64,000 nt of DNA from Candidatus Omnitrophota bacterium (GCA_003142795.1 PLNN01000017.1:512-64511); one strand, 5' to 3'. Shown: positions 1,058-41,853, counted from the first letter of the stretch. Notes: a model not told the origin generated them from the sequence alone. Program-made: numbers and translations.

Positions 1058-1066
1058 ATGCGAATA

Positions 1067-1819: not shown

Positions 1820-1820
1820 T

Positions 1821-2987: not shown

Positions 2988-3033
2988 AATTATTTTAAAT
3001 TCCTCACCAGCCTATTTTATTCAGGTTCCAGGG

Positions 3034-3747: not shown

Positions 3748-3767
3748 TTCGGCACCTCACCTTTTAG

Positions 3768-5585: not shown

Positions 5586-5616
5586 GATGCACTTGTATCC
5601 TTTCTATCATTACCCC

Positions 5617-7748: not shown

Positions 7749-7790
7749 CGAATGCGATGCATATGTATCGAAAATTTATCATTTTATAAA

Positions 7791-8744
7791 TTAAACAGTT
7801 TCAAGATCGAAGAATGTCTCCCCAATGGTTCTAACCGCGACACCGCTTGTGCATGTTGGTACATATTCAATAACCCGCCCCTCCTTCAAATCTATCCACC
7901 ATTTCACATCTTTAAACCCAAAACAATGACGTACATACACGGTGCTTGAAAATCTTGGATTGATCTCAAACGGCACATAGCCATTCTTGCCTTTTCTCAA
8001 CTGAACATTGATTGATCCTTCAAGCGATGATGCCTTAGCAATTTTTTGCGCAAGCGCTGTAAGTTCTCCATCCTGAACAAGCTGGGCATATTTGGTAAGG
8101 CTCCCATATCCCAAATACCTTTTAAAACCAATGGAATAAGTCTCGCGCCCCGTGGAGAATACTCCCATAGTATATTCCTCATCAGGCCCACCTACAATCT
8201 CCTGGACAAAGGCATCTTTCATTCTTTTTTTATAAAAAGAAAGTTCTTCATTATTTTCTATGCGCAGGACACCTTTTGCGCCCCATCCTCTTCTCTGTTT
8301 TAATAGCACGGGAAATGGCATTTCACTCTGAAACTGATCAATAAGAAAAGTTTTAGGGTGTGGGAGATCATTGTTTTTCAGAAAAAGAAAGGTCTCATAT
8401 TTGTCAAAAAACATTTTGATAAGGGCAGACTTGTTAATAAGAACTGTGGTTTTTTTGCCGAAAAATTCTCTGCGTTCATTATAAAATTCAATTTCGATCT
8501 CCGTAGTAGGAATAATACAGGAAATCGATTCCTTCTCCATTATATTTTTAACAAACTCAAAATAATTTTTGCTATCACTCGCATGCGGGGCTTGGAAAAA
8601 TAAATCAACCGCGTTCCTGCCGGCCGCAAAATTATCTACATCACAGCCGAAAAGCGTGACCTCGCATTCTATTCCTTTCAGGCATTTAAGTATGCTTTGT
8701 CCTATATCTCCGCCGACACCAGTTATTAAAATAGATTTCCGCAC
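7791..8744 (-). CDS. ATP-grasp domain protein (carboxylate-amine ligase)
   Basis: 317 aa. Short-form carbamoyl-phosphate-synthase-like ATP-grasp architecture. Located between PseF-like and the phosphoesterase. Confidence 0.55.
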   Translation of the reverse strand: MRKSILITGVGGDIGQSILKCLKGIECEVTLFGCDVDNFAAGRNAVDLFFQAPHASDSKNYFEFVKNIMEKESISCIIPTTEIEIEFYNERREFFGKKTTVLINKSALIKMFFDKYETFLFLKNNDLPHPKTFLIDQFQSEMPFPVLLKQRRGWGAKGVLRIENNEELSFYKKRMKDAFVQEIVGGPDEEYTMGVFSTGRETYSIGFKRYLGYGSLTKYAQLVQDGELTALAQKIAKASSLEGSINVQLRKGKNGYVPFEINPRFSSTVYVRHCFGFKDVKWWIDLKEGRVIEYVPTCTSGVAVRTIGETFFDLETV

Positions 8745-8746
8745 AA

Positions 8747-9439
8747 CTATCGCTCTTTTCTCTGTAAGATCTTGTAAAGATATGAATTTTTTTCTCTGCG
8801 CTTCATCACATCTCGCACCATCAGCATATTGTCATACTGAACTCTTTTGAACTCTACAAGATCCGAATCAATATCAATTATCGCATACGACGCACTATTA
8901 TAGTCCCGCGGCTGGCCGATCGATCCGGGGTTTATAATTCTTAATCTGCCTATCTTCCTGTCCATTGGATAATGAGTATGCCCCAATATCACAAACCGAT
9001 ATGGCAATCGGCTGAACCTATCAAGGCAGTCTTGAGGATATACGTATTCCTCTAAATAGTTCCAGGGACTCCCATGAAACATCCCTATGTTAAAATCGTC
9101 TAAAACATTCACTTTAGGCAACGCCCTTAAAAAGGATATGTTTTCTTCAGTTATATATTTCTTCAAAAGGCGCGAAGAATTTCCATAAGCTTCACTATAT
9201 TCCTTTTCTAATTTTGGATCATCGAGCATTTTGAGAAATATATCATCATGATTACCCGCTACACAATAAAGATTCTTCTCGTTTTTGAGAATATCGATGA
9301 TCTCATTCTGATAATAATAATATCCGCAAATATCGCCGACAAAACAATACAGATCACACGTTTCGGCGATTAGAGATCTCCACGCTTTCTCGAAAGCGTA
9401 AATATTCCCATGTACATCCCCGAATATACCTATTTTCAT
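8747..9439 (-). CDS. calcineurin-like metallophosphoesterase
   Basis: 230 aa. GDVHGN, GDxxD and GNHD metal-binding motifs. Confidence 0.7.
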   Translation of the reverse strand: MKIGIFGDVHGNIYAFEKAWRSLIAETCDLYCFVGDICGYYYYQNEIIDILKNEKNLYCVAGNHDDIFLKMLDDPKLEKEYSEAYGNSSRLLKKYITEENISFLRALPKVNVLDDFNIGMFHGSPWNYLEEYVYPQDCLDRFSRLPYRFVILGHTHYPMDRKIGRLRIINPGSIGQPRDYNSASYAIIDIDSDLVEFKRVQYDNMLMVRDVMKRREKNSYLYKILQRKER

Positions 9440-9445
9440 ATCTAT

Positions 9446-10300
9446 TCACCGTGGCTGTAGATACAGAACGGTACTCCTGCCTATGCCGCATTGATACAAA
9501 ATAGAATAAAATTTTGAAAGCAAATCCGGTTCATAGCAACGCAGAATGCGCTCCATATTAACAACCTTCTTAAAACTCGCCCTCCCCAGAGACTTGCGTT
9601 TGAGATAATCATCGCCCATCAGAAGAAACATTTCCATAGGAAAAGAACTTTCGCCGCGCAAGATGGTATATCCCGCCTTTTTTACCAAATTGCGGATTCC
9701 TTCTTTATCGAAATAATTAACGTGGTCGGGTAGCGCGATCCAATATGGCGTTAAATTATGTTCCTTTATATAGGCTAATTGGAATGGGTTGAATTCATTC
9801 GGCACCTCAACCATAACTATTCCGTTCTTTGCAATATTACTTTTCAAGCGTTGTAAAAATCCAAGTGCATCCGGAATGTGCTCTAAGATATAGGCGACAT
9901 TTACGACATCCCATCTCTTTTTAGAAAACTTTTGAAAAAATTCTTTTATAGAGATTTGATAGATTGAGATGCCCTTGGACGTCGCGATAGCAGCGGCTTT
10001 TTTGTTTAACTCGGTTCCCGTGCATTTCCACCCTTCTTTCTTGAAGTATTCAAGCTGCGCACCTTCCCAACACCCTATATCGAGTATGCTCCCACACGAT
10101 TTCCATTTTTTTATGCTTCTGACTTTTTCTCTCCATAGGTTGCTCGGCGTGCTTCTTCGATAAACATATTCATAAAATTTTTCCAATTCCTCCTCGCTAT
10201 ACATAGGAGATATGTGAGCATACCCGCATTTCTTACAAAAAATAACTTTACGATCTCTCTTCGTCAGAAGGAGCTCTCCCCGGCATTCTCCTTTCATCAT
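9446..10300 (-). CDS. class I SAM methyltransferase with N-terminal zinc ribbon
   Basis: 284 aa. CKKCGYAH Cys pair at the N-terminus; LDIGCWEG SAM motif. Confidence 0.6.
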   Translation of the reverse strand: MMKGECRGELLLTKRDRKVIFCKKCGYAHISPMYSEEELEKFYEYVYRRSTPSNLWREKVRSIKKWKSCGSILDIGCWEGAQLEYFKKEGWKCTGTELNKKAAAIATSKGISIYQISIKEFFQKFSKKRWDVVNVAYILEHIPDALGFLQRLKSNIAKNGIVMVEVPNEFNPFQLAYIKEHNLTPYWIALPDHVNYFDKEGIRNLVKKAGYTILRGESSFPMEMFLLMGDDYLKRKSLGRASFKKVVNMERILRCYEPDLLSKFYSILYQCGIGRSTVLYLQPR

Positions 10301-11352
10301 ATGTCACCTCGGGTTATTATAGCGCCATTTCTTCTATTTCTTTTCAGCGTTTTACCAATGACGCTATCAATCTCGACCGGATGTATGAAATCACAATGAA
10401 TCCCGATATTGCGCAAGGCTATCAGATCATCGGCATTTACAATCTGCCCCTTAGAAAGATCTTTCTTCGCGTAGAGACAGCGCTTATAAAAATAGAGCTC
10501 TTTTTCACAATCAAAAATCCTTCTCTTGCGAAATATATGTAATGCGCTTTCTGCCTGACGTATGGCCGTCACCATGCAACGAAACTCATCCGGCTCGAGG
10601 GCATAGATATGATCCGGCCCCGGAAGTTTTTTGCTTAATGTGATATGTTTTTCGATGACTCTTGCGCCTAGCGCCACTGATACTGTAGGGGCGATGATCG
10701 GATCAGCGGTATGGTCGGAATATCCAACGTTTATATTATACCGTGCACGAAAATATGGTATAACGCTCAGAAACGTTTCTTTGATCGGCGCAGGATATTT
10801 TGCGATACAATGCATAAGAACCGTTTTTTCTTCATAACCAAGGAGTATCTTGGTTATCATCATATCAATTTCTTCTTCAGTGCTTCCGCCTGTCGAAATA
10901 AAGAGTGGTTTTCCTGTTTTTTTCACTTCTTCTATAAGCTCCGAAAACATAGACTCGTAAGAAGCTATCTTAAACACATTGACATAAGGATTAATTACCT
11001 TTACGGCCTTCACGTCAAAAGGGGTTGCCATAAATTCTATGCCGCTTTTTTTCGCATATCTATAAAGTTCATCGATCCATTCGTAAGGAACCTCGTTTCT
11101 CTCGATTATGCTATAGAGACTATCGTTGATTCCCATATTTTTTAAATATCGTACCTTTATATGCTTATCCGGATACATAGTCTTCGCGCGGAATATCTGG
11201 AATTTTACCGCATCCGCCCCGGCATCGCGGGCAATGTCAATTAATTGCTTCGCCTGTCGCAAGGAGCCGTTATGATTTGAGCCCACCTCGGCTATTATAA
11301 AACACGGGGACTCATCACTTATTATCTTCCTACCAACGCGTATCTTATGCAT
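10297..11352 (-). CDS. pseI: NeuB-family nonulosonic acid synthase (pseudaminic acid synthase-like) with C-terminal SAF domain
   Basis: 351 aa. N-terminal FIIAEVGSNHNGSL..AKQLIDIA..GADAVKFQ is the NeuB/PseI/LegI hallmark. Context with pseB, pseC and pseG supports the call. Confidence 0.75.
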   Translation of the reverse strand: MHKIRVGRKIISDESPCFIIAEVGSNHNGSLRQAKQLIDIARDAGADAVKFQIFRAKTMYPDKHIKVRYLKNMGINDSLYSIIERNEVPYEWIDELYRYAKKSGIEFMATPFDVKAVKVINPYVNVFKIASYESMFSELIEEVKKTGKPLFISTGGSTEEEIDMMITKILLGYEEKTVLMHCIAKYPAPIKETFLSVIPYFRARYNINVGYSDHTADPIIAPTVSVALGARVIEKHITLSKKLPGPDHIYALEPDEFRCMVTAIRQAESALHIFRKRRIFDCEKELYFYKRCLYAKKDLSKGQIVNADDLIALRNIGIHCDFIHPVEIDSVIGKTLKRNRRNGAIITRGDI

Positions 11353-11384
11353 ACCGCATGGTCCTATGCTCGTTTATTCTCATT

Positions 11385-12461
11385 TTAAAATCTCCTTCTA
11401 TATATATATGCTAATATTTTTTTTACAGCCCTATGAACGCCGCGGCCATCGACTATTTTTTTTCCTCTCCGGCACCTCTCCGATCGCAGCTTCTTATCAA
11501 AGATGACAAGATCTAATTTCGCCTTCAACTTTTTCATGATTTTGTCGTTACTGCCTCTATCGCCTTTATAGCACCCCACATGCTCGATAACGCCGGCGCG
11601 CGAGAGAGCCCTGGAATGCCGCATTTGATTCTCTGCAACGGTTATGACTATAGAAGGAACTCCCATTCTGGCAAGCTCGTACAATGTCTGGCCACCTGCC
11701 GAGATCGTAATATCGGACTTGATCATTAGTTCTTTCATGGTATCGGCGTTCGGATCATAGATAAACCTTGTATTCTCGTCTCCACAGTTTTTTAATTTAT
11801 TTGCGTACTTAAAACCCCTGCTTATAACGACATCTTTGTTCAGGCCGGGATACTTATGAGCAAGTAATTTCAAAACTTTCGGCGTCACATTCATTGGATC
11901 GCAACCACCAAAAGTCACAAGCACGGTCTTGACATGTTTACGTATACGCTTCCGGGGAGCATCTAAAAACTCTTTTCTTAAGGGCGCATATCTGCTGCCA
12001 AGCAAATAAAAAACTCCATCTCTTTCTGGATACTCAATCTTTTCTGCGTAAGCAGCGCTATTTATCACGACGCCGGGAGGGTAATTTATACGCATATTAT
12101 CATCTATATAGACCGGCAGCTTCGCTATAATAGATATTTTCTTATAAAAATTAAGGTCAGCGAGATAAGAATCCACAAGGATAATGTCCATTTCTCGCGC
12201 GGTTTTCAATACTTCCGTCCTTGCCTTTAACCAGTTCAGTATCTTATACCGCTTTGATCTTAACATTCCTTTTACGCTGTCATCACCGCACACAATGATA
12301 TCTGGCTTTATACCCTTTTCTTCAAAGGCATGATAAAAAGCAAGGCATCTGGTGATATGCCCATATCCAATACTTTTCCCGCCTTCTGTTAATATCAATG
12401 CTTTCATTTTATCTCTTATTTTTATCGATCTACACAATGTCGGAAGAACCGGCTTCACCAT
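11385..12461 (-). CDS. pseG: PseG-like UDP-sugar hydrolase (GT-B fold, UDP-2,4-diacetamido-trideoxy-altropyranose hydrolase family)
   Basis: The ORF as tracked runs to 12578 and overlaps pseC by 124 nt. Internal Met candidates (MVKPV or MKALILTEGG) give a non-overlapping start. The KALILTEGGKSIGYGHITRCL N-terminus is PseG-like. Confidence 0.5.
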   Translation of the reverse strand: MVKPVLPTLCRSIKIRDKMKALILTEGGKSIGYGHITRCLAFYHAFEEKGIKPDIIVCGDDSVKGMLRSKRYKILNWLKARTEVLKTAREMDIILVDSYLADLNFYKKISIIAKLPVYIDDNMRINYPPGVVINSAAYAEKIEYPERDGVFYLLGSRYAPLRKEFLDAPRKRIRKHVKTVLVTFGGCDPMNVTPKVLKLLAHKYPGLNKDVVISRGFKYANKLKNCGDENTRFIYDPNADTMKELMIKSDITISAGGQTLYELARMGVPSIVITVAENQMRHSRALSRAGVIEHVGCYKGDRGSNDKIMKKLKAKLDLVIFDKKLRSERCRRGKKIVDGRGVHRAVKKILAYIYRRRF

Positions 12462-13615
12462 CCGGCCCCGAAGAAACCGGCTATTTTTTTCACAACATAA
12501 TCTATTTCCCTCTCTCGTATCGCGGGATACATAGGAATGCTGATCTCGCCTCCATAAAATTCTTCCGCTTTCCGGCAAAGCCCTTTAGCATATCCGAGCT
12601 GTTTATAGTATGGCTGGAGATAGACCGGGATGTAATGCACTTGAGCGCCTATACCAGAAGCCCGCAAAATATTAAAAAGAGGGGTCCTGTCCTTCGGATC
12701 CCTCGTTCTTATGCAATAAATATGATATGATGAACTAACATACGACCGCTCGACGGGCAATAGTATATCTTCGATGCCGCATAATTTTTTATTATACGTC
12801 TCGGCGATCTGGCGTCTTCTTATAACAAAAGTATTTAACTTTTTCAGCTGACTTAAGCCCAGCGCGCTCTGGATATCTGTTATACGATAATTAAAGCCTA
12901 AGCACTGCATTTCGTAGTACCAAGAGCCGGTTAAGCGCTGATCCTGGCACACGAAACGCAATCTATCCCTGCTTATCCCGTGGCTCCGCAGCATTAAAAG
13001 CTTTTCGTAAAGATCTTTTTTGTTCGTCAACACAGCCCCGCCCTCGCCCGTAGTGATACTTTTAACGGGATGAAAACTGAATATCGTCATATCGGAATAT
13101 TTGCAGGCGCCTATCTTTGAACCCTTATATTCTGCGCCCACGGCATGTGCGGCATCTTCAATAACGACAAGACCGTTTCGATCAGCTATGGCGCTTATCT
13201 CTTCCATATCGCACGGATGACCGGCAAAATGGACCGGAATGAGCGCTTTTGTCTTCTTGTGTATCTTGGTTTTTATCTCTTTAGGGTCTATGTTGATCGT
13301 GTCATGCTGCACATCGGCAAAAACCGGCCTTCCGCCGCAATATAAAACGCTATTTGCCGAAGCAAGAAACGTTATCGGAGAAGTGATAACTTCATCGCGC
13401 GCTTTTATACCGGCAGCCAAACATGCAATATGCAAAGCGGCCGTTCCGCTCGATACGGCCACGGCATATTTCGCGCCGGTATACCTGCAAAGGGCGTTTT
13501 CGAATACGTCCACATTCGGCCCCTGCGTGATATAATCCGATCTTAAAACTCTGACAACAGCATCAATGTCGTCTTGATCGATATATTGATGGCTATACGG
13601 GATAAATCTATTCAA
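12455..13615 (-). CDS. pseC: UDP-4-keto-6-deoxy-AltNAc aminotransferase (DegT/DnrJ/EryC1 family)
   Basis: 386 aa. FSFHPVKSITTGEGG PLP-lysine motif. QYIDQDDIDAVVRVLRSDYITQG N-terminus is typical of PseC. Confidence 0.8.
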   Translation of the reverse strand: MNRFIPYSHQYIDQDDIDAVVRVLRSDYITQGPNVDVFENALCRYTGAKYAVAVSSGTAALHIACLAAGIKARDEVITSPITFLASANSVLYCGGRPVFADVQHDTINIDPKEIKTKIHKKTKALIPVHFAGHPCDMEEISAIADRNGLVVIEDAAHAVGAEYKGSKIGACKYSDMTIFSFHPVKSITTGEGGAVLTNKKDLYEKLLMLRSHGISRDRLRFVCQDQRLTGSWYYEMQCLGFNYRITDIQSALGLSQLKKLNTFVIRRRQIAETYNKKLCGIEDILLPVERSYVSSSYHIYCIRTRDPKDRTPLFNILRASGIGAQVHYIPVYLQPYYKQLGYAKGLCRKAEEFYGGEISIPMYPAIREREIDYVVKKIAGFFGAGW

Positions 13616-14606
13616 TTCTTGTCCTTTCTATCATCCTTTTAATCTCAGGAACGCTCAACCATTGCTCATTCTTATCGCTACTGTATACGAATCCCTCGGG
13701 CGGGATCTTATATTTGTAATATTTACCATGGACATGCTTGCCCTCAAAGAATTCCGCAAGAATAACATACGCGCCTTTGAACATTCTTGTTTTGCGCGCC
13801 TCATCCTCCGATATTAGGGTTTCGTGCATCTTCTCTCCGGGGCGTATCCCTATTATTTTGAATCTGCACCGCGGCTCAATCGCCCTGGCCAGATCCGTTA
13901 TTTTCATCGACGGTATCTTCGGGATAAAGACCTCTCCGCCCACGGATTCCTTCAGGGCCTTCATGACTAAATTCACCCCCTGCTCCAGAGTTATCCAGAA
14001 ACGCGTCATGCGTTCATCGGTTATAGAAAACTCCAGATTCTTCTGCCTTTTACATTCGAGGAATAGGGGTATGACGCTTCCTCTTGAGCCGACAACGTTC
14101 CCGTATCTTACAGCTGAAAATTTGACACGACCGCCCGCATAAGCGTTTGCGGCTATGAATATCTTTTCGGCAGCTAATTTTGTGGCACCATACAGGTTGA
14201 TGGGACTGACGGCTTTATCGCTCGATAACGCAACTACTTTCTTAACGCCTCTATCTATGGCGGCATCTACTATATTATCCGCTCCAAGGATATTGGTTTT
14301 CACAGCTTCAACTGGATTATATTCGAGGGCTGGTACCTGTTTCAATGCCGCCGCATGGACCACATAATCTACGCTTTCAAATGCCCTGTAGAGACGACTC
14401 TTATCCCGTATGTCTCCCAGGAAATATCGTATCGGATATTTAGATACCGGGAATATCTTCGCCATCTCGTGTTGCTTGAACTCATCGCGGCTTAATATGA
14501 TAACCTTTTTGGGGTGACATCTTTTGAAAACCATCTCTGTAAATTTTTTCCCGAATGAACCCGTTCCGCCAGTTATAAGAATTACTTTATTATTAAGCAT
14601 ATCCAC
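13608..14606 (-). CDS. pseB: UDP-GlcNAc 4,6-dehydratase/5-epimerase (inverting)
   Basis: 332 aa. VILITGGTGSFGKKF Rossmann motif. PseB/FlaA1-like throughout. Confidence 0.8.
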   Translation of the reverse strand: MDMLNNKVILITGGTGSFGKKFTEMVFKRCHPKKVIILSRDEFKQHEMAKIFPVSKYPIRYFLGDIRDKSRLYRAFESVDYVVHAAALKQVPALEYNPVEAVKTNILGADNIVDAAIDRGVKKVVALSSDKAVSPINLYGATKLAAEKIFIAANAYAGGRVKFSAVRYGNVVGSRGSVIPLFLECKRQKNLEFSITDERMTRFWITLEQGVNLVMKALKESVGGEVFIPKIPSMKITDLARAIEPRCRFKIIGIRPGEKMHETLISEDEARKTRMFKGAYVILAEFFEGKHVHGKYYKYKIPPEGFVYSSDKNEQWLSVPEIKRMIERTRIE

Positions 14607-14619
14607 ACGTACCTCCCTT

Positions 14620-16410
14620 TTAATTATGCGGTGCCCCTGATCCGCTTCCTGTCAATACAGCTCGGAGCACGTCAATACCCCGATCGTCCGGATACTCATC
14701 AATCCTTCTTATAAGATCCTTCGGTATTTCACTCAGGACAGACATTTCGCCGTTCGATATGTCCCGTATCATCTTCAGCAGCTTATCACTCTCTTTAAAT
14801 ACCGCCTTATCTTTAAGTATCCTTGAAAAAGGATGATCAAGTTCGGCTTCATCCAGATAAAGCCCCTCGATTCCGCATATAATAGCTATAGTGGCCGAAC
14901 TGGTCATAGACTCTGTAACGACTATATCCGAAACGCCAATACATTCGATAAATGACCACTTTTTTTCGTCAATTATATGAGCGTTGCCTAGTTCTTCTAT
15001 ACGCTTTTTTATCTCAAGGAATCTATCCCTCAACTCGCGCGGAAGCTCGTGATATCGAGAAAGCTCTTTGGACTTCATGATCACGGTCAGCTTCGGCTCT
15101 TTCACAGCAAGCTCAAGCGCAGTTTTCCAAAAATTAACATAATGCTCCGCCTTAAGAACGCTTCCTCCGCCAAAACTTTCGTCAAAAAAAGTTACAACTT
15201 TTCCCACAGAATGTATCCCCATTTCCGAAAGTATATAGCTTCGCCTGAATTTGACGTTATTGATGAAGCGCTTAAAAATATAACCACTATGAATAAAAAT
15301 ATCCGACGCCTCTCTGCCGGTGAGTGCGTTGGCCGCGCCCCATGCAAAATATTTATCACAACCCAAGAAAGAAATACTATACTTTATAGAATCCGAAGAC
15401 ATATCAGACCCGTATGCCAGGTAGTATCTGGTTTTCATGTTTTGACAAACTATAGCTTCCGGAATGTGACGAGAGGAATAAAAACTATATCCTAACTCAG
15501 CCCCTATTTCGTAATTGGAAAATATCTTTTCGTATGGCAATGCATAAGAGATAAAATATCTTGAGATCCTTGAAAATAGGGAGAAGTTGGCAGAGCTTAT
15601 CTCGGCCGATAACGAACCCATCCCGCCCACCAGATAAAGAGGGATCACCCTGAAAAAGAAAGTGGCGAAACTTATTTTTAGAGATGGCAGGTAAAAAGTG
15701 TTAAACCGCAACATTTTTGCTTGCTGGTATGCCTTGTTCCGTTGTTCACATTGTTTAATATCTTTCCGCGAAAATAATAATAGGTCGTCTTTCTTTATGC
15801 TCTTTTCATCAACTAAAAAATCATCATGGAAATAATATCCTCCCGTAGGATAAAAGCCCCAGACCAATTCGCGCATAACCTTATATTTTTTCTTTGCCCT
15901 AAAAATAGCAATACCGCTATTCAGGCTAAAATACAGAACAAACAGGGCTTGAAAGAAAATCACAAAAATACATGATATCGTGTTCCTTCGCCTGACCCAT
16001 TTAATTTTCGGGATAATCTTGAATCTTGAAGAGAATTTTTCGAAAGCATATCTATTGATAGGATTATCATCCAGAACAAGCCGCCCGCTCTTAATTAAGT
16101 CATCTCTCGAAAAGCTATCCATGGCATTCAATAGGTCTATCATGTATTCGCAGATCCATTTTTTTAATAGACTATCAAATCGTTTCGTTTTAAAAACGGA
16201 ATTCATGCCTTTAATAAAAGCGGAGTCGCACAGTCTATTTTCTTGAACGAACGCTTCCACTAGACCTACTATATCAGAGCGGATCCAGTCGAAATGTTCG
16301 CGCCCATTTTGCAAGGGAATATCGATATCTTTCTCGCAATGGAATGTGCGATCGCCTAATAATGCCTGACTTATATAATTTTTTATTAACTTTTTAATTG
16401 ACGTTTTCAT
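14620..16410 (-). CDS. uncharacterised large protein, candidate GT-B-type glycosyl/phosphoglycosyl transferase (capsule-synthesis/TagF-like C-terminal region)
   Basis: 596 aa. Central hydrophobic segment. C-terminal VVTESMTSSATIAIICGIEGLYL resembles the nucleotide-binding SS motif region of TagF/KpsS-type enzymes. Confidence 0.3.
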   Translation of the reverse strand: MKTSIKKLIKNYISQALLGDRTFHCEKDIDIPLQNGREHFDWIRSDIVGLVEAFVQENRLCDSAFIKGMNSVFKTKRFDSLLKKWICEYMIDLLNAMDSFSRDDLIKSGRLVLDDNPINRYAFEKFSSRFKIIPKIKWVRRRNTISCIFVIFFQALFVLYFSLNSGIAIFRAKKKYKVMRELVWGFYPTGGYYFHDDFLVDEKSIKKDDLLLFSRKDIKQCEQRNKAYQQAKMLRFNTFYLPSLKISFATFFFRVIPLYLVGGMGSLSAEISSANFSLFSRISRYFISYALPYEKIFSNYEIGAELGYSFYSSRHIPEAIVCQNMKTRYYLAYGSDMSSDSIKYSISFLGCDKYFAWGAANALTGREASDIFIHSGYIFKRFINNVKFRRSYILSEMGIHSVGKVVTFFDESFGGGSVLKAEHYVNFWKTALELAVKEPKLTVIMKSKELSRYHELPRELRDRFLEIKKRIEELGNAHIIDEKKWSFIECIGVSDIVVTESMTSSATIAIICGIEGLYLDEAELDHPFSRILKDKAVFKESDKLLKMIRDISNGEMSVLSEIPKDLIRRIDEYPDDRGIDVLRAVLTGSGSGAPHN

Positions 16411-17608
16411 ATTGCCTTTTAGTAAGCGCTAAATTCTTGATACGATTTGAAAATATTTGCCAAAAAGGTAATTCTTCCGTATTGTCTTTTTTTATAAAAG
16501 CATTTTTATATGCTCTGTACGCCTTTTCATCTATCGTCATTTCTTTTTTAAAGTCTATTTCGAGCATTTCGTCGACATTTATTACGCCCTTCCCCAGGAA
16601 AGATGCCATTTGCCGTATCCACTCCCCCTGGAGGCTCCTTTGCAAGCTGTCCGTTGTAATGAATATCACCGGTTTTTTCTCTAATACCGCGTAATTGATA
16701 GACGTACTGCAATGGCCTATCACAAAAGACGCCCTTCTGATCAGCTCCATGGTCTTACCTTTAACGACGTGTCTTCCGCCAAAATAATCCGGATGATCTT
16801 CATATCGAGATCGCGGATAAGCAGCTATGGTTATATTCGTTCTATTCGCATCTTCCAAATGATCGAAAAACCTCCTTATAGGCGGATAATATTCCTCCGG
16901 CGTTGAAAACGGCGGCACTTTCATCATTGGATAGTGCGGATGAAAAGGAACATATTCATCTATGAAAACGCCCATCTTATTATCGATTTCTACGGTGTTT
17001 TTTATTTCCTCAAGATAAATGTCATAGTCTAGTGCGTGTATAAACAGCAATTCTGTCTGAGAACCAACCATATCTCTACGATCATTCGCGCGATATGCTC
17101 CTCCAATCAATACGAAACTTGCGGGATTTATGCCTAATATTTTATGGGGCACGCGGCAAAATAACGATTGTTTCAATGCTTCTATATCGCGCGTCTTTCT
17201 TAATATATTCAAAATGGCTTCCATAATAGAACCATTTTTCTTTATACTGAATGGTAACACGCTAGAGATGACACAATACATGATCTGCTTTTTGGAAATT
17301 GCCCGGAATAAAGAATATGAATTCACTCTATACTGTATGAGACATACCACCAGAACATCTTGTGTCAATTTGTAAATTTTTTCAAGCGCATCTTGCATTT
17401 TTTGAAATTCAAAATAGTGCTCATAGTAAACTATGTCGGCACCCTTCACATCCTCCACCACGCCTGGATACAAAAAAGGAGTGCAGTTCCACACCTCAAC
17501 CTCAAACCCGTTACTTCTTAAAACATCGATGCCAAACCTTTTATAATCCCGTTCATAAAATGACGTTTCAGTAATAAAAACTATTTTTTTGATTATACAT
17601 TTGTCCAT
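16394..17608 (-). CDS. uncharacterised protein with HP motif and TagF/sialyltransferase-like C-terminal region (candidate nonulosonic-acid transferase)
   Basis: 404 aa. VPFHPHYP and VIGHCSTSINYAVLEKKPVIF resemble the HP and S-S motifs of CMP-sugar-dependent GT-B transferases. Confidence 0.3.
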   Translation of the reverse strand: MDKCIIKKIVFITETSFYERDYKRFGIDVLRSNGFEVEVWNCTPFLYPGVVEDVKGADIVYYEHYFEFQKMQDALEKIYKLTQDVLVVCLIQYRVNSYSLFRAISKKQIMYCVISSVLPFSIKKNGSIMEAILNILRKTRDIEALKQSLFCRVPHKILGINPASFVLIGGAYRANDRRDMVGSQTELLFIHALDYDIYLEEIKNTVEIDNKMGVFIDEYVPFHPHYPMMKVPPFSTPEEYYPPIRRFFDHLEDANRTNITIAAYPRSRYEDHPDYFGGRHVVKGKTMELIRRASFVIGHCSTSINYAVLEKKPVIFITTDSLQRSLQGEWIRQMASFLGKGVINVDEMLEIDFKKEMTIDEKAYRAYKNAFIKKDNTEELPFWQIFSNRIKNLALTKRQYENVN

Positions 17609-17620
17609 TTTAGAGAGGAC

Positions 17621-18616
17621 CTATCTTTTATACAAACCCAGATATGATAGAATTATCTTTGTCATGCACTTAAGTTTTTCTATTTTAAAACGATTGATCA
17701 TCGTACCATAGTGGCCATCGATCCGGGGGCATGACGATACATCAGAATGTGTAAAAGTTCCGAACATATGGACCTCTTGAGCTGCTCCGATCTTAATAGA
17801 CTTCAATCCAGCCTTTGCACAATAATATTCAAATGTTAACGGGGTAAAATAATAGACATGTGCATTTTGCAATTGACCTATGCCGAAGTTCATGATGTTC
17901 GGGACCCCTATATATAAAAGGCCTGATTTATCCAGGTGGCGGATGATTTTCTTTAATGATTCCACCGGATCGGGGAAATGCTCCAGCGCGTGATTAATGA
18001 TTATAATGTCATACAACCCTTTGATATCGTCGATACTGCCCTGCTTCATATTTAAGCCGTGTCGATTACCCATATTGACAAGGCTTTCGCTGTAATCTAT
18101 CCCGACAACGGCCGCGCCTGCGTTGGCGAATAACACAAGGTTCCACCCTCCGCCGGCGCCTACCTCCAGCACAGACACGGTAGGATCTACGGTCCTGATA
18201 CCGGAGATCTCGTCAAATATATGCCGGCTATGCCGTGGCTCATATCTATCTTCATAGGTTATCAGGTAGTCCTCGCCTTCATAACAGAGTCTGTACATAT
18301 CCGAAGAATAGAACTTAGCATACTCCTTATCAGTCATCCTGGGGTTAGACTGGATAAGTCCGCACCGGACGCACATAATGGTCTTCTGCCGCATTGAATG
18401 CCTGTCTACGCTTGCTATCAGATCGAACTCTAAAGAACCGCATAGACAATTGACCGATTCAAACTCTATAAGGCCCTGCTCGGCCTTACGGTTAAACTCA
18501 ACTACAAGCTCCGACTGTCTCGGTGAAAGTCTCATAAATGAGCTTTCGGGGTTATGAAAATACTTGAAAGGCAGCAAGGTTCGCCGTATCTTTATATTGT
18601 TTTTGCTATTTTTCAT
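17621..18616 (-). CDS. class I SAM methyltransferase with N-terminal Cys4 zinc ribbon
   Basis: 331 aa. CLCGS..CVRCG; VLEVGAGGGWN motif I. Confidence 0.6.
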   Translation of the reverse strand: MKNSKNNIKIRRTLLPFKYFHNPESSFMRLSPRQSELVVEFNRKAEQGLIEFESVNCLCGSLEFDLIASVDRHSMRQKTIMCVRCGLIQSNPRMTDKEYAKFYSSDMYRLCYEGEDYLITYEDRYEPRHSRHIFDEISGIRTVDPTVSVLEVGAGGGWNLVLFANAGAAVVGIDYSESLVNMGNRHGLNMKQGSIDDIKGLYDIIIINHALEHFPDPVESLKKIIRHLDKSGLLYIGVPNIMNFGIGQLQNAHVYYFTPLTFEYYCAKAGLKSIKIGAAQEVHMFGTFTHSDVSSCPRIDGHYGTMINRFKIEKLKCMTKIILSYLGLYKR

Positions 18617-19298
18617 TAATCCCAGTCCCGAGAACCATCAATTCAACAGACCATCTGAAGAATTTGACTTTTGTCATATTGGTAAGCCTCCGCGCATTAG
18701 GCACGGATAACACCATTTGAAGAAAATTTGAGAACATCTTCAAAGACGGATAATGCCATAAAATCGGCATCTGATAAAAAAACTCTGTCTTCACCTCAGA
18801 AAATCCATATATAGTCAATAAATCCGAAAGGGCCCTTATATTATACGGCCTGGAATGCGTAAAATCTTCGTAAAAGACCTTCATCTGACTGACCCAATCC
18901 GGAGTCAGAATAATAACTCTGCCTCCCGGCTTCAAAACTCTGCAGGTTTCTTTCATTAAATGATCCGGGTTGCTAAAATGCTCGAGTACGGATTTGTGGT
19001 AGACTACGTCAAAAGCACTATCATCATACGGAAGCTTATCTTCTGAGATATCCAGGCATACAACATTAAGATGAGGCATATTCTTGGTACAATGGTCACT
19101 CGCATCTACCCCGTAACAGCTAAGGCCCAAGTCATGAAATGCCTCTAGAAAATCTCCTCGCCCGCATCCGATTTCCAGCAGTTTTGAACTCCTGCTCATG
19201 TTAAATCGACTTACCAGGTATGAGGCCAATTTAAAAGGATAGTTGCTTTTTGGCGCTCTATTTCGGTCATATACAACGGATACGTAATCTTTTTTCAT
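18606..19298 (-). CDS. class I SAM methyltransferase
   Basis: 230 aa. LLEIGCGRGDF motif I. Confidence 0.6.
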   Translation of the reverse strand: MKKDYVSVVYDRNRAPKSNYPFKLASYLVSRFNMSRSSKLLEIGCGRGDFLEAFHDLGLSCYGVDASDHCTKNMPHLNVVCLDISEDKLPYDDSAFDVVYHKSVLEHFSNPDHLMKETCRVLKPGGRVIILTPDWVSQMKVFYEDFTHSRPYNIRALSDLLTIYGFSEVKTEFFYQMPILWHYPSLKMFSNFLQMVLSVPNARRLTNMTKVKFFRWSVELMVLGTGINEK

Positions 19299-19729
19299 CT
19301 TCCCTCAGTCACTTCAACGAGTTCTATAAAAACTCCGTCCGGGTCCATGCAAAACGCTATCTTAGCGTATCCATCCGGAGATAACTTCGGCGATGAAACG
19401 AAATCAACGCCTTCCCCCAGAAGCCTCTTATACTCTTTCTCTATATCATCCACGGTAAAAGCTATGTGCGATAGCCCAATGTCATGCAGCTTTTTTTCGA
19501 CTCCCCGATTGGGATGAGAATGAAAATATAAAAGCTCAATAAGATTACCGTTATCCGTGGCCATCTTTACCGTTGTAAGCCTGGAATCCCGTAGACCACA
19601 CACCTTGTCGATATAGCCACTCGATTCGTCTGAACGCTTGGCTATCTTTAAGCCGAGAAGTTCTCCGTAAAAATATACAGCTTTTTCCAGATCCGATACC
19701 ACTATCCCGGCGTGACGCATGGCTTTCAT
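19295..19729 (-). CDS. VOC-family (glyoxalase/bleomycin-resistance/epimerase-like) protein
   Basis: 144 aa. MRHAGIVVSDLEKAVYFY..LGL N-terminus is typical of a VOC beta-alpha-beta-beta-beta module. Confidence 0.6.
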   Translation of the reverse strand: MKAMRHAGIVVSDLEKAVYFYGELLGLKIAKRSDESSGYIDKVCGLRDSRLTTVKMATDNGNLIELLYFHSHPNRGVEKKLHDIGLSHIAFTVDDIEKEYKRLLGEGVDFVSSPKLSPDGYAKIAFCMDPDGVFIELVEVTEGR

Positions 19730-21135
19730 TGGATGGACTCCCTTTCGATCTCAGCGACAGACTCCTCGAGCGCCGTTATGCCGTCGAAGAGCGCAGCGTC
19801 CGGAATGGTTAGGGGGGGGCCGATCTTTATGGATTCTCTGCCCGTATGCACTAACAACAAGCCCTTCTGCATAGCCCTTTCGCATACCATACTTGGAAAG
19901 ATGCAGTCCGGAGATCCGGTTTTCGGATCTTTAAACAACATGGCCGCCAGGAGTCCCTTCCCAAAAACATATGACACTCTATGCGGATATTTTTCTTTTA
20001 TCCTGTTCAGCTCTCTATGCAATATAATCCCTTTTCGCGCGGATTCTTTTACAAGATCCTTCGATTCGATAACCTGCAGGTTTGCAAACGCGGCAGCACA
20101 GCAAAGGGGATTCGCAGAATGAGTACTGCTCATAGAACCCATATCCGGCAGATCCATTATATTCCTGCGCCCTATTATAGCGGACAGCGGTAGCGAACCG
20201 CTTATGCCCTTACCAAGGCATACGAGATCGGGCTCCACCCCGTAATGCTGATACGCGAATAATTTACCGGTCCTGCCAAATCCGCCCTGAATATCATCGA
20301 ACGTAATGAGACAATCGTGCTCTTTCGCGAATACCGCGAGCATTTTTACGTAAGGTACCGGAAAGAATAATGCTCCCCAGCCCATATAAGATTCCAAAAT
20401 AAAACCGGCTATTTTCCTGAAATCGAGGCCCTTTTTCTTTAATGACACCATGTCATCGGCAAAGCGCTTTTCCCATACACCTCTACTTATTCTGCCATTG
20501 GAGCCTGATCCGATAAGCCAGGGATAAGGGAATGGCATATTGAAAATATTCGGGTCTCTATAGCCGATCCACGCGGAAGAATCGGTATCACCTTTAAGCA
20601 TTTCGGCGGCCATGGTTCGGCCATGCATGGACCCTTTGAAAGATATAACCGCGACTTTCGATTTATTGATAGTTTGACCGCGCATTCTCATGAGCTTGAC
20701 GGCACATTCCGTAGCCTCTGTCCCTGCAGACAATAGGAATGCTTTATTAAGATGCTTTGGTGCGATCTCTACCAATTTTTGCAGGAACCTTGCGCGAGGC
20801 TTATTGGCAAATGTGTAAGTATGGAGCAATTCTTTATCCAGCTGCTTACGAAGCGCGGATATGATATCCTCGTTTGCGTGGCCTGTATTGGTAACAAATA
20901 TCGTTGATGTAAAATCTATCCAGCAATTCCCATAAGGATCATAGACTTGAAAATCCTTTGCCCTGTCCCAGACCACGGGCAATTGGCCATGCATCGATCT
21001 TGACTCGTATTTTCCAAGTTTGTCGAATATCCTGGAAGACCCCGGAGGAGGGATCCTTGTCCTTATTTTTCTATATTTGGAATCGATCAACGGGACTCTT
21101 TTCGGTTCCTGACAAAATTTGAATCCTGACATCAC
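19726..21135 (-). CDS. class III (GSA-aminomutase-like) PLP-dependent aminotransferase
   Basis: 469 aa. Fold-type I class III signature regions (VTNTGHANEDI, LSAGTEATECAVKL, DDIQGGFGRTG). Confidence 0.7.
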   Translation of the reverse strand: MMSGFKFCQEPKRVPLIDSKYRKIRTRIPPPGSSRIFDKLGKYESRSMHGQLPVVWDRAKDFQVYDPYGNCWIDFTSTIFVTNTGHANEDIISALRKQLDKELLHTYTFANKPRARFLQKLVEIAPKHLNKAFLLSAGTEATECAVKLMRMRGQTINKSKVAVISFKGSMHGRTMAAEMLKGDTDSSAWIGYRDPNIFNMPFPYPWLIGSGSNGRISRGVWEKRFADDMVSLKKKGLDFRKIAGFILESYMGWGALFFPVPYVKMLAVFAKEHDCLITFDDIQGGFGRTGKLFAYQHYGVEPDLVCLGKGISGSLPLSAIIGRRNIMDLPDMGSMSSTHSANPLCCAAAFANLQVIESKDLVKESARKGIILHRELNRIKEKYPHRVSYVFGKGLLAAMLFKDPKTGSPDCIFPSMVCERAMQKGLLLVHTGRESIKIGPPLTIPDAALFDGITALEESVAEIERESIQ

Positions 21136-21890
21136 TATCTCCCTTTTACTGAACCGGCCATTAGTTCTTTGTAAAGACTGCCGGGCGACCTGCCTATCTG
21201 ATACTCCAGATAGTTAAAATCTTCAATCGTATCCACTTCGGCCACTCTTGGCGTAACAAATCCGAGTATACGCGGGCCATGAAGTCTATTATTTTTTTTC
21301 ACATAATCCGTTCTTATTATATCCACATAACCGTTCGGATGATAGGCTGTGGCAAAAGCCTGCCTCGGAAGGTTATAATATTCAGGGCGTGGGTCATCAG
21401 GAAAGATCCCGGTCAGGTACCCCTGGCTATTTATCCGGAACATCTTTTCCGGAGCTTCAGGCAATTCATGGACCGATCTCAGCGATGTTGCCTCGCCTGA
21501 ATTAAGAATAGCGCTTATGGCATTTTCCATGACCGTGGACTCGCGAAGAGGCGTCGTGGGCCTGATATGTACCAGTAATTCCGGAGAACGCCCTTCGTGC
21601 TCGACAAACCAATTGATCGCATGCAATACAAACTCTATATCCCCCGACAAGTCCCCTGCGAGTTCTTTCGGCCGCATGAAAGGTACCTCGGCGCCGTAAG
21701 TCTTGGAGATCTGCGCTATCTCTTCGGAATCCGTAGATACTACCGTCCTATCTATCTTGCCGCAGATACGGCATGCAATTATTGAATATGCGATGAGCGG
21801 ATGCCCGCCAAGAGTTTTTATATTCTTTCCCAGAACACCTTTTGAGCCGCCTCGCGCCGGTATTATAGCCACGATATTTTGCTTAGACAC
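21135..21890 (-). CDS. NeuA-like acylneuraminate cytidylyltransferase (CMP-sugar synthetase, copy 3)
   Basis: 251 aa. VAIIPARGGSKGVLGKNIK motif. Confidence 0.7.
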   Translation of the reverse strand: MSKQNIVAIIPARGGSKGVLGKNIKTLGGHPLIAYSIIACRICGKIDRTVVSTDSEEIAQISKTYGAEVPFMRPKELAGDLSGDIEFVLHAINWFVEHEGRSPELLVHIRPTTPLRESTVMENAISAILNSGEATSLRSVHELPEAPEKMFRINSQGYLTGIFPDDPRPEYYNLPRQAFATAYHPNGYVDIIRTDYVKKNNRLHGPRILGFVTPRVAEVDTIEDFNYLEYQIGRSPGSLYKELMAGSVKGR

Positions 21891-21905
21891 GTCTTCTCCT
21901 TATTA

Positions 21906-22703
21906 TCAGGGTGAGGTCGGCACTCCCCAGAAATGGCAGTATGAACAGAGAGGGACCATATCCCTTTTACCCTGCTTGTGGTATTCAAGCCACTCCAGGC
22001 GCTTATCGCCGTTCCATATGTCCTCTAGAGACTGCTCATGCAGGTTCCCGATGACGCCCAGCTTCTTCGGGTCAAAACGCACGCATATGGACACATTGCC
22101 TTCCCGGCTTATACACAAATGCCCCAGGAGATCCCAGCATATCCCAACCTCCGGTATAGTAGGGCTTCTCTTGCTATAAGCGAAACTGCCCATCTTGGCA
22201 TGGAGCACGCGCTTTATTATCAGGGCTCCGAGTTTTTCATACTTAGATGGATCCACATCTCCTATTAATCGCAGGCTTGTAAAAGGCTTTTTGTCACCCT
22301 TGATACTTAAAAATTCTTTTATGACCTCAAACTGCTCGGGAGCTTCTTCATCATTTTCAAACACAGAGATTGATATCGTATCAAGGTTGTCAATGATCTC
22401 ATCCGCTTTTTCCACTATTAATTTACCGTTCGTGACGATATTCTTTATCTGATCTTTAAACAAGCTTACGGCTTCACCAAAACGCGGATATAACAAAGCC
22501 TCGCCGTCCTTGTGAAACTGCACGATTATGTTGGGAGGTAATTGACCTGATATCTTGCGAACAAGCTCAAAATCCATATCGCCATAATCCATGGCGAGCT
22601 CGGGATAATCCTTATCCACCTTGCGCCGGCCGCACATCCAGCATTTCTTGTTGCACCTGGAGGTCAGTTCTACATTAACGCACCCCAACCCGTAAAGTTT
22701 CAT
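21906..22703 (-). CDS. radical SAM/SPASM-type enzyme
   Basis: 265 aa. CNKKCWMCGRR radical SAM motif. C-terminal Cys cluster (CVRFD..CSYCHFWG). Confidence 0.6.
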   Translation of the reverse strand: MKLYGLGCVNVELTSRCNKKCWMCGRRKVDKDYPELAMDYGDMDFELVRKISGQLPPNIIVQFHKDGEALLYPRFGEAVSLFKDQIKNIVTNGKLIVEKADEIIDNLDTISISVFENDEEAPEQFEVIKEFLSIKGDKKPFTSLRLIGDVDPSKYEKLGALIIKRVLHAKMGSFAYSKRSPTIPEVGICWDLLGHLCISREGNVSICVRFDPKKLGVIGNLHEQSLEDIWNGDKRLEWLEYHKQGKRDMVPLCSYCHFWGVPTSP

Positions 22704-23584
22704 GCGACTTTAGCTCCTACCCTTCTAAGCTTCTTCATGATAGGGATCTCGCTATCGTATATCTTGATCTGCCCATCACCCTTAGCGGCTTCCCAATTCC
22801 TTATGTCAGCAACTAATCTGTTCAAGCCTTGTGGTTCAACTGACGCAGCCTGATCGCTGCCCCACATGGATCTGTCCAACGTTATATGGCGTTCCACAAT
22901 GCAAGCGCCCAGAACAACAGCCGCATATGTAGTATAAAGACCTACTTCATGACCGGAATACCCTATAGGAATGTCGTACCTCTCCATGAGCGTCTCTATA
23001 CCCTTCAGATTAAGCTCTTCGGTCTTAGATGGGTATGTGCTCGTGCAATGCATGATGATAAGGTTGTCAATCCCTACAACCCCCACTGCGTGATCGATTA
23101 TATTCATATCACTCATGCCGGTAGAAATGATAATAGGCTTCTTCTGCTTTCTGCAATATCTCAACAGGTTATCGTCCGTGATAGACGGTGAGGCGATCTT
23201 ATAGCACGGTGGGTCAAATTGCTTGATAAAATCCAGCGACTTTTCGTCCCAACATGACACAAACCAGGTAATTCCTTTTGATTTACAATAAGCGTCAATC
23301 TCTTTATATTCTTTTAATCCGAATTCCAATCCACGCTTCAAGTCACCATTCGTTGGTCCGAAAGGGTTTTCCCGCGGCTTTGCAAGCTCTTCAGCCGTAT
23401 AGACTACATCGACCGTCCGCTTCTGGAACTTAACGGCATCGCACCCGAATTTTACGGCAACATCGATCAGCTGCTTAGCCATGTCCAATGACCCATTATG
23501 ATTTATCCCTATCTCCGCTACAATATAACAAGGAAAATCATTACCTATTACGCTATTCCCGATCTTTACCGTCTTCCTGGACAT
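22700..23584 (-). CDS. NeuB-like sugar-PEP condensing synthase, short form apparently lacking the SAF domain
   Basis: 294 aa. FPCYIVAEIGINHNGSLDMAKQLIDVAVKFGCDAVKFQ NeuB hallmark. About 55 aa shorter than the pseI-like copy. Confidence 0.65.
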   Translation of the reverse strand: MSRKTVKIGNSVIGNDFPCYIVAEIGINHNGSLDMAKQLIDVAVKFGCDAVKFQKRTVDVVYTAEELAKPRENPFGPTNGDLKRGLEFGLKEYKEIDAYCKSKGITWFVSCWDEKSLDFIKQFDPPCYKIASPSITDDNLLRYCRKQKKPIIISTGMSDMNIIDHAVGVVGIDNLIIMHCTSTYPSKTEELNLKGIETLMERYDIPIGYSGHEVGLYTTYAAVVLGACIVERHITLDRSMWGSDQAASVEPQGLNRLVADIRNWEAAKGDGQIKIYDSEIPIMKKLRRVGAKVA

Positions 23585-23630: not shown

Positions 23631-24125
23631 TTAAAATAATTTCTCCGCCAGGCTCAACGCCTTCGATGCCAGGCTATTCATGTCTTCTATCTTTTTCAAT
23701 TTTTCATGATACGCTTTTACTATCTTTTTATCTTCCTCCGTCATATCGCCTTCTGACGAATGGATCAACTCTTTAAACTCTTCTATCATATCCGATACCT
23801 GCCCGATCCTTTTATGGATCCCGGCCTTAAGCTTATTCGCAGCTACTTTCCTGATGTCCGGATCAGCTTCATAATAATCTTTTCGGGAACCCTTTACCCA
23901 TACATTCTTGACGGCTCCCCATTTCTCTAATTCACGTATATTAAGGCTTATATTGCCTTTACTTGCACGAAGACGCTCTACAAGTTCATCCAGCGATAAT
24001 GGCTTATCACTCAGATAGAGCACAGCATATAACTGAGCTATAAATTGATTGAGGCCAAAGCTTCCAGCTAATTCACCGATACTCGCTATGAACTTATCCT
24101 GAGCCATCTCCAGCTTGTTATGCAT
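23631..24125 (-). CDS. GbsR/MarR-type winged-helix transcriptional regulator
   Basis: 164 aa. N-terminal wHTH followed by a coiled-coil tail; resembles GbsR-family repressors. Confidence 0.5.
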   Translation of the reverse strand: MHNKLEMAQDKFIASIGELAGSFGLNQFIAQLYAVLYLSDKPLSLDELVERLRASKGNISLNIRELEKWGAVKNVWVKGSRKDYYEADPDIRKVAANKLKAGIHKRIGQVSDMIEEFKELIHSSEGDMTEEDKKIVKAYHEKLKKIEDMNSLASKALSLAEKLF

Positions 24126-41847: not shown

Positions 41848-41853
41848 TACGAA

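Follow-up and report, generated by a model that had tools for sequence, protein, structure and literature searches.

A short NeuB-family synthase coupled to a radical SAM enzyme in an Omnitrophota genome: a recurrent, modular cassette predicted to make a modified CMP-ulosonic acid

What might a NeuB-family synthase make when it lacks the C-terminal SAF domain and its gene runs directly into that of a radical S-adenosylmethionine (SAM) enzyme? The question is raised by a stretch of 64,000 nucleotides (nt) from a Candidatus Omnitrophota bacterium (GCA_003142795.1 PLNN01000017.1:512-64511; hereafter the window, with positions counted from its first letter), in which seven tightly packed minus-strand genes lie head to tail at 17621-23584. 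Ulosonic acids (sialic, pseudaminic, legionaminic, Kdo, Kdn) cap microbial surfaces and govern host, phage and immune recognition. We find that the cassette is a real, conserved set, as seen in its intact domains and motifs, gene coupling, recurrence and modular alternatives, and we propose, with moderate confidence, that its product is a cytidine monophosphate (CMP)-activated 3-deoxy-2-ulosonic acid, modified with amino and methyl groups and destined for a surface glycan. Its genes, with protein lengths in amino acids (aa), are given below in the direction of reading.

22700-23584, minus strand: short NeuB-family synthase (NeuBs), 294 aa; PF03102 only
21906-22703, minus strand: radical SAM enzyme, 265 aa; Radical_SAM and SPASM (Pfam)
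21135-21890, minus strand: CMP-ulosonic acid synthetase-like cytidylyltransferase, 251 aa; CTP_transf_3, PF02348
19726-21135, minus strand: class III pyridoxal phosphate (PLP) enzyme, 469 aa; Aminotran_3, PF00202, 279.7 bits
19295-19729, minus strand: VOC protein (glyoxalase I fold), 144 aa; Glyoxalase/VOC, PF00903
18606-19298, minus strand: class I SAM methyltransferase, 230 aa; Methyltransf_23/11
17621-18616, minus strand: class I SAM methyltransferase with a Cys-rich N-terminus, 331 aa; Methyltransf_23/11, residues 146-273

Translational coupling of the first two genes, which the original prediction for this DNA had claimed, is borne out by an ATGA in which the radical SAM start codon overlaps the NeuBs stop codon. 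A Shine-Dalgarno-like AAGGAG stands ahead of the GTG start of the cytidylyltransferase gene, and the other cassette junctions are overlaps of 1-11 nt (from the coordinates). All six gene types that had been described (NeuB, radical SAM, cytidylyltransferase, class III, VOC and methyltransferase) were recovered on the minus strand by Pfam. The two methyltransferases foreseen are likewise both present, but the range drawn for the set, 18606-23584, holds six genes and leaves the second methyltransferase (17621-18616) outside. No tRNA genes were seen in the window.

Domain boundary analysis of the 294-aa protein returned PF03102 only (residues 39-272, 258.5 bits against a Pfam cutoff of 22.1), with no match to PF08666 (SAF) in the Pfam scan; since the NeuB/PseI models of NCBIfam align only over about the first 277 of their 329 positions, the SAF domain is truly absent, as had been predicted. 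The models for N-acetylneuraminate synthase (TIGR03569, 249.6 bits vs a cutoff of 399.65) and pseudaminic acid synthase (TIGR03586, 212 bits vs 340.25) stayed below their thresholds. The prediction had itself named a truncated pseudogene as the case to look for; this could be ruled out by the equal-length homologues, the conserved catalytic motifs and the overlapping next gene. Because that gene begins at the NeuBs stop codon, there is no frameshift remnant of a SAF domain, and the homologues are equal in length and share the KKLRR end. The family is large and strongly conserved: over 8000 proteins of roughly 290 aa, 55-82% identical across phyla, were matched, and a scan of one genome per species found it in at least 596 species. 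The best 120 relatives (279-312 aa, PF03102 only) are 71-82% identical, with one exact match (100%), and include proteins from Omnitrophota, Chloroflexi, Nitrospirae and archaea.

Some 110 positions are invariant in the short NeuB alignment, among them the metal-binding His, the Lys and Ser that bind phosphoenolpyruvate (PEP), and the C-terminal KKLRR. Equivalents of NmNeuB E25, K53, Q55, K129, S132, H215, E234, H236 and D247 are kept (H215 and H236 being metal ligands); E134 is replaced by Ser (motif AS-x-S-x-TDD), with D137 as a conceivable substitute, and F112 by Trp. A basic, nearly invariant loop (KRT...KPRENPFG.TNGDLKRGLEF) follows the second strand, and a basic cluster (K55, R56, R71, K83, R287) is kept in all short NeuB groups and absent from the full-length PseI-like paralogue. 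Among solved structures, the best profile match is 6NCS, a 290-aa NeuB. We predict that the short NeuB condenses PEP with an aldose or aldose phosphate. In a survey of nonulosonic acid (NulO) synthases, about 30% of NeuB-family sequences, from environmental organisms, were without SAF (PMC8208679), and the 294-aa protein belongs among them; the survey left their function and gene context open, and neither the radical SAM link nor the phosphatase/radical SAM split that we describe below is in it.

How firmly is the synthase tied to its neighbours? With the radical SAM profile we gathered 80 metagenome loci, and co-occurrence was assessed in the 31 radical SAM-anchored loci that had at least 3 kilobases (kb) on both sides. 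A short NeuB gene was present in 29 of the 31 (median distance 1.0 kb), as was a CTP_transf_3 gene (29/31, median distance 1.8 kb). The core of the cassette is this trio of short NeuB, radical SAM enzyme and cytidylyltransferase, to which a swappable module is added. Beside the radical SAM gene we found a class III aminotransferase gene directly followed by a VOC gene (10 loci, usually joined by the 230-aa methyltransferase), a class IV aminotransferase gene (9 loci) or a gene for a short-chain dehydrogenase/reductase (SDR; 9 loci), and never two of these options at one radical SAM locus. Three interchangeable carbonyl-consuming enzymes next to one radical SAM enzyme are what would be expected if the latter makes a carbonyl.

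The search for the seven-gene cassette in other genomes, proposed by the original prediction, recovered the same gene order in three further Omnitrophota contigs, so that the functional unit stands; as a fixed set of seven it does not, given the trio and its exchangeable module. The window's seven genes are found rearranged in six metagenome loci. In a metagenome-assembled genome of a Nanoarchaeota member, the genes for NeuB, cytidylyltransferase, class III enzyme, VOC protein, methyltransferase and radical SAM enzyme are accompanied by those for a GmhA-like isomerase and a TagF-like transferase; Saccharibacteria carry the class III version in one contig (set in part) and the class IV version in another. 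Genes resembling B12-binding radical SAM methylases occur in 17/31 of the radical SAM loci, and homologues of the 331-aa methyltransferase in 13/31, spread over all three variants, while the 230-aa methyltransferase occurs in 9-12/31, nearly all of the class III variant.

A GmhA-like isomerase of the SIS_2 type often adjoins the short NeuB or the radical SAM gene (seven loci, the Nanoarchaeota one included); its scores (193-202 bits) fall slightly short of the GmhA cutoffs. Such an enzyme might provide an aldose phosphate of manno configuration, either a hexose or a heptose giving a ten-carbon acid. No GmhA-like isomerase gene was found in the window.

The radical SAM enzyme passes the PF04055 threshold narrowly (30.2 bits vs 29.5). 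Its C17-x3-C21-x2-C24 motif (CxxxCxxC) is invariant in the family, and exactly four further Cys are invariant (189, 207, 253, 256), which fits one auxiliary cluster. The family is compact, with 61 representatives at E <= 1e-30 among 1.84 billion and about 1650 sequences at E <= 1e-10 in a larger collection; no plasmids carrying the gene were found. BtrN is the nearest solved relative, both by sequence profile (E 2e-11, core and C-terminal domain both covered) and by Foldseek of the AlphaFold model (predicted local distance difference test, pLDDT, 77; E 6.7e-10; TM 0.60/0.64). The next structural matches include the sugar-acting BlsE, DesII and SpeY, together with peptide-modifying enzymes and the epimerase EpeE. 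BtrN is a radical SAM dehydrogenase that turns a secondary alcohol into a ketone, which is then transaminated, in butirosin biosynthesis; by analogy, we predict that the BtrN-like enzyme of the cassette creates a carbonyl on the ulosonic acid or on a precursor.

The enzyme might instead be a carbohydrate epimerase (like HygY, NeoN or EpeE), in which case the cassette would yield a methylated stereoisomer of an ulosonic acid that might gain no new amino group, and the class III PLP protein would act on another carbonyl or be itself a racemase or epimerase. We regard both parts of this alternative as unlikely, since it leaves the three mutually exclusive carbonyl-using neighbours unexplained and no other cassette enzyme is able to make a carbonyl for the aminotransferase; moreover, R433, D280 and K309 of the class III protein are kept as in transaminases.

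Taking the radical SAM enzyme as the source of a carbonyl, we infer the substrate, the attacked carbon, the order of steps and the product from the enzyme families and the gene context. The short NeuB would join PEP to an aldose (an aldose phosphate of central metabolism being the likeliest), in the reaction of its close relatives that act ahead of a KdsC/Kdn-9-P-type phosphatase. The BtrN-like enzyme would then abstract a hydrogen from a carbinol carbon of the acid to give a carbonyl, beside which the VOC metalloenzyme may epimerise or isomerise; the class III PLP enzyme would turn the carbonyl into an amine, and the two SAM methyltransferases would methylate N and/or O. The cytidylyltransferase would form the CMP-sugar, which the GT-B protein encoded downstream probably transfers. 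The product would presumably be an aminated and methylated CMP-ulosonic acid of 8 or 9 carbons (or longer).

The partner enzymes agree with this scheme to differing degrees. The model for PseF (TIGR03584) gives 141.6 bits on the cassette cytidylyltransferase, below its cutoff of 205.7, vs 303.7 bits on the gene at 7026-7748, the PseF of the window; with a separate PseF to serve the Pse genes, the cytidylyltransferase is the cassette's own. In 25/26 radical SAM-type loci its gene is found no more than 5 kb from NeuBs. The class III enzyme had been described as being of the glutamate-1-semialdehyde (GSA) aminomutase (HemL) type, an assignment that we revise: its best NCBIfam models are acetylornithine and gamma-aminobutyrate (GABA) aminotransferase families, no HemL model is among the best 25 of 69 matches, and the closest solved structures are GabT/PuuE. 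In cassette copies the catalytic Lys (K309), the PLP-binding Asp (D280) and R433 are invariant, and the enzyme is predicted to aminate a carbonyl. The 144-aa protein belongs to the VOC fold (PF00903, 72 bits) and keeps an invariant metal tetrad (H6, E65, H88, E136) in cassette copies, with scores well under the cutoffs for glyoxalase I (63.7 vs 120 bits) and methylmalonyl-CoA epimerase (46.3 vs 114.95 bits). Its gene occurs only alongside that of the class III enzyme, which is always directly followed by it.

Several points weigh against the proposed pathway. Identity of the radical SAM enzyme to BtrN is just 19-26%, and its Twitch/SPASM relatives include epimerases (EpeE) and a decarboxylase (BlsE). 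PLP racemases and epimerases are among the closest relatives of the class III enzyme, which may therefore be something other than an aminotransferase, and the part given to the VOC metalloenzyme, an epimerase or isomerase beside the carbonyl, is a guess. The named carriers (Omnitrophota, Parcubacteria, Saccharibacteria, Nanoarchaeota) are all uncultured. Finally, if the NeuBs product carries a phosphate, a simple dehydrogenase leaves the fate of that phosphate unexplained, there being no KdsC-like gene in the window.

This last point is sharpened by what accompanies the short NeuB elsewhere. In NeuBs-anchored loci its commonest neighbour, usually the next gene, encodes a 164-aa HAD protein that matches the KdsC and Kdn-9-P phosphatase models equally (91 bits, below the cutoffs). 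The comparison covered 86 short NeuB loci, each with flanks of 4 kb or more on both sides.

Radical SAM gene present (n=26): phosphatase present in 0, absent from 26
Radical SAM gene absent (n=60): phosphatase present in 48, absent from 12

The exclusion is marked (Fisher p 3.8e-13), in a test that carries no correction for phylogeny and draws on locus sets sampled by different anchors. No KdsC-like gene was found across the window or in 87 radical SAM loci, and the window synthase is thus without the phosphatase gene of a Kdn-9-P/Kdo-8-P type route. The slot directly after NeuBs is taken by the radical SAM gene in the cassette and by the phosphatase gene elsewhere. In a neighbour-joining tree the clade of the window NeuBs falls inside a phosphatase-linked clade, beside a Nitrospirales enzyme (72% identical), and at least three other radical SAM-linked NeuBs lineages arise separately; the window clade agrees with the phosphatase-linked enzymes at 61/61 checked family positions, basic cluster included. 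Such nesting and identity mean that the window synthase most likely carries out the same reaction as the phosphatase-linked NeuBs; to judge from their neighbourhood, the acid so formed would be phosphorylated, like that of the Kdn-9-P route (PMC6200933).

In these observations lies the case for another chemistry, in which the 265-aa enzyme is a radical lyase that expels phosphate by a spin-centre shift (PMC9131482) from an omega-phosphorylated acid, giving an omega-deoxy keto acid to be aminated or reduced. We think this possible but improbable, and extend the same tentative weight to its corollary, that the radical SAM enzyme stands in for the phosphatase and abstracts the hydrogen at the carbinol beside the terminal phosphate ester. 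The exclusion of the phosphatase (0/26 vs 48/60), the occupation of its slot and the nesting of the window NeuBs among phosphatase-linked enzymes, with the same, probably phosphorylated, product to be expected, all speak for it; so do the presence of DesII among the structural matches and the variant with an SDR, which parallels the AprD4/AprD3 deoxygenation. Against these stand the limits of the exclusivity test given above and the fact that phosphorylation of the NeuBs product is itself read from gene neighbourhood. The class III enzyme, moreover, is of the GABA type, and such enzymes prefer terminal aldehydes over methyl ketones, and a housekeeping phosphatase may be at hand elsewhere in the genome. 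We know of no radical SAM phosphate lyase of the kind proposed, which also counts against it. Were the lyase real, it would be a new kind of radical SAM enzyme, used by Omnitrophota, bacteria of the candidate phyla radiation (CPR) and DPANN archaea, and deoxy-amino ulosonic acids would have a second route of synthesis, late-stage and not bound to the logic by which legionaminic (Leg) and pseudaminic (Pse) acids are made.

A cytidylyltransferase gene is near just 15/48 phosphatase-type loci, and in Melainabacteria/Gastranaerophilales (16 loci) the short NeuB and KdsC-like phosphatase genes are paired in a conserved neighbourhood, with no cytidylyltransferase or glycan genes nearby. This pair might have a housekeeping role.

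Could the NeuBs product escape CMP activation altogether? It might serve as an alpha-keto acid donor for a thiamine diphosphate (ThDP) enzyme on the opposite strand, yielding a branched-chain sugar as YerE does with pyruvate. A block of an E1-like dehydrase, short NeuB, phosphatase and ThDP enzyme recurs in Acidobacteria and others, and the window has RfbF-like, E1-like and ThDP enzymes at 35343-41150. These window genes are, however, some 15 kb off and on the opposite strand, ThDP genes are near just 2/87 radical SAM loci, and 25/26 radical SAM-type NeuBs have a cytidylyltransferase; we therefore hold this use of the product to be very unlikely. The plus-strand region as a whole (35343-43179) encodes an RfbF-like nucleotidyltransferase, two dehydratase/epimerases, the ThDP enzyme, the E1-like DegT dehydrase, a family 2 glycosyltransferase (GT2) and PMT_2. 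In its recurrent form elsewhere (eight loci) the block comprises the E1-like protein, short NeuB, KdsC-like phosphatase, ThDP enzyme and a 401-aa protein, which suggests that short NeuB products are used differently there and perhaps act as keto-acid donors in making branched sugars.

The cassette is set among further genes of the same strand, of which two adjoin it directly and five form a Pse route.

23631-24125, minus strand: winged-helix regulator (MarR/GbsR-like), 164 aa; MarR_2/HTH; CudC model 74 bits, below cutoff
16394-17608, minus strand: GT-B fold protein, 404 aa; no Pfam/NCBIfam match; AlphaFold pLDDT 87.5
13608-14606, minus strand: PseB; above cutoff
12455-13615, minus strand: PseC; above cutoff
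11385-12578, minus strand: PseG-like, 397-aa open reading frame (ORF), TTG start; model score at cutoff
10297-11352, minus strand: full-length NeuB/PseI-like; below both equivalog cutoffs
7026-7748, minus strand: PseF; 303.7 bits

Upstream of the cassette lie genes for glycosyltransferases, a Wzx flippase and PMT_2, and such glycan-assembly surroundings fit a surface glycan. The 404-aa protein, which has no match by sequence among solved structures, is a candidate transferase for the activated sugar, judging from its modelled fold: its homologues follow the cassette in five loci, and that of Methanococcoides burtonii, in a NulO cluster, adjoins a Wzx flippase. The near-invariant AAHPRS motif of this family reads AAYPRS in the window copy (Tyr for His, residue 264). 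Next downstream, on the same strand, is a 596-aa PFTS-motif-like protein. The 164-aa regulator, with homologues in four related loci, is possibly the first gene of the transcription unit; the best sigma-70-like site (TTGACA-17-TATTAT, 24191-24163, minus strand) falls in the 97-nt gap upstream of it and is weak, and the promoter and terminator scan overall was not above chance.

The Pse genes invite the suspicion that the cassette merely decorates pseudaminic acid, or that the 294-aa gene is a decayed copy in an ordinary Pse/Leg/SpsE locus. PseB, PseC, PseG-like, full-length NeuB/PseI-like and PseF are indeed encoded on the same strand, downstream and separated by short gaps. Nevertheless, PseB accompanies just 2/31 radical SAM loci, the cassette recurs without any Pse genes, and decay is contradicted by thousands of equal-length homologues with conserved catalytic residues. 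We consider the suspicion, in either form, the least probable of the alternatives and hardly credible. Our reasons for rejecting an ordinary Pse/Leg/SpsE locus are that the Pse genes stand apart, with a PseF to themselves, and that the cassette is also found where they are missing. Nor is there a SAF domain as in a SpsE or legionaminic acid locus, the partners being a radical SAM enzyme, a class III enzyme, a VOC protein and methyltransferases; the expectation that this is not a conventional Neu/Leg/Pse/SpsE locus was therefore sound.

Within the Pse route (7026-14606) we saw no PseH acetyltransferase. An ATP-grasp gene (7791-8744), a methyltransferase gene (9446-10300) and a metallophosphoesterase gene (8747-9439) are interspersed there, which hints at a non-standard N-acyl group. 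The metallophosphoesterase was also tried as the missing phosphatase and rejected, as it occurs in just one related locus. The PseG-like ORF overlaps PseC by 124 nt; as its match to the PseG model does not begin before residue 58, translation probably starts instead at an internal Met near 12407.

Near the start of the window a third CTP_transf_3-like gene (1067-1819, minus strand; PseF model just 62 bits) is flanked by minus-strand radical SAM/SPASM genes at 23-1057 and 1821-2987, the latter with an N-terminal SPASM. Beyond 1821-2987, on the minus strand, follow a methyltransferase gene, an ABC exporter gene (3768-5585) and a B12-binding radical SAM gene (5617-7029). The region 23-7029 may be another radical SAM sugar-modifying module.

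Literature searches for NeuB together with radical SAM or SPASM found no description of such a cassette. To our knowledge, all known routes to amino-deoxy ulosonic acids modify a nucleotide-hexose first and leave PEP condensation to the last. The cassette suggests the reverse order, with condensation first and radical SAM functionalisation of the finished acid thereafter. It provides a first clue to what the large branch of NeuB without SAF does, and its carriers (Omnitrophota, CPR bacteria, DPANN archaea) are organisms whose surface chemistry is essentially unknown. With its three natural variants (two with aminotransferases of different classes, one with a reductase), the cassette lends itself to a direct test of the proposed keto intermediate. 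There may also be a connection to the CMP-linked acids that mass spectrometry has revealed in environmental bacteria and that have yet to be assigned (bioRxiv 10.64898/2026.04.20.719630).

Among known systems, the Kdn pathway resembles the first and last steps. It is represented by Bacteroides thetaiotaomicron BT1714 (Kdn-9-P synthase), BT1713 (Kdn-9-P phosphatase) and a CMP-Kdn synthetase, and is also found in Prymnesium parvum (PMC6200933). A NeuB-family synthase joins PEP to a sugar phosphate, CMP activation follows, and a KdsC/Kdn-9-P phosphatase-like gene usually comes next after relatives of the short NeuB; in contrast, the phosphatase is missing from the window and the 87 radical SAM loci, and what the window cassette carries in its stead is a radical SAM enzyme, an aminotransferase, a VOC protein and methyltransferases.

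For the middle steps, BtrN and BtrS of 2-deoxystreptamine (butirosin) synthesis offer a parallel, in that a small Twitch radical SAM dehydrogenase makes a polyol ketone which a PLP aminotransferase converts into an amine. They differ in acting on an aminocyclitol, vs an ulosonic acid context here, and in the low identity (19-26%) noted above; BtrS, too, is a DegT-type aminotransferase, vs a class III or IV partner in the cassette loci. In the Kdo8N route of Shewanella, the alcohol dehydrogenase KdnB oxidises an already formed 3-deoxy-ulosonic acid before the aminotransferase KdnA acts. This late-stage oxidation and transamination of a finished ulosonic acid is what the cassette would share, although the oxidant there is metal- and NAD-dependent, neither a VOC protein nor a methyltransferase takes part, and no KdnA/KdnB relatives were seen in the cassette.

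The Pse and Leg routes lead to the same type of end product, a CMP-activated amino-deoxy ulosonic acid, and a Pse route is present in the same operon, but their amino and deoxy groups are installed on a nucleotide-hexose before condensation (by 4,6-dehydratases and DegT-type enzymes) and their synthase bears a SAF domain, none of which is found in the cassette. AprD4, for its part, expels water, and AprD3 is the SDR-type reductase of the resulting ketone. In this pair, as in DesII (which expels ammonia; PMC11434129), a radical on a carbinol carbon drives out the leaving group next to it, and a ketone results; DesII is a structural match of the cassette enzyme, and in one variant of the cassette an SDR accompanies the radical SAM enzyme, much as AprD3 accompanies AprD4.

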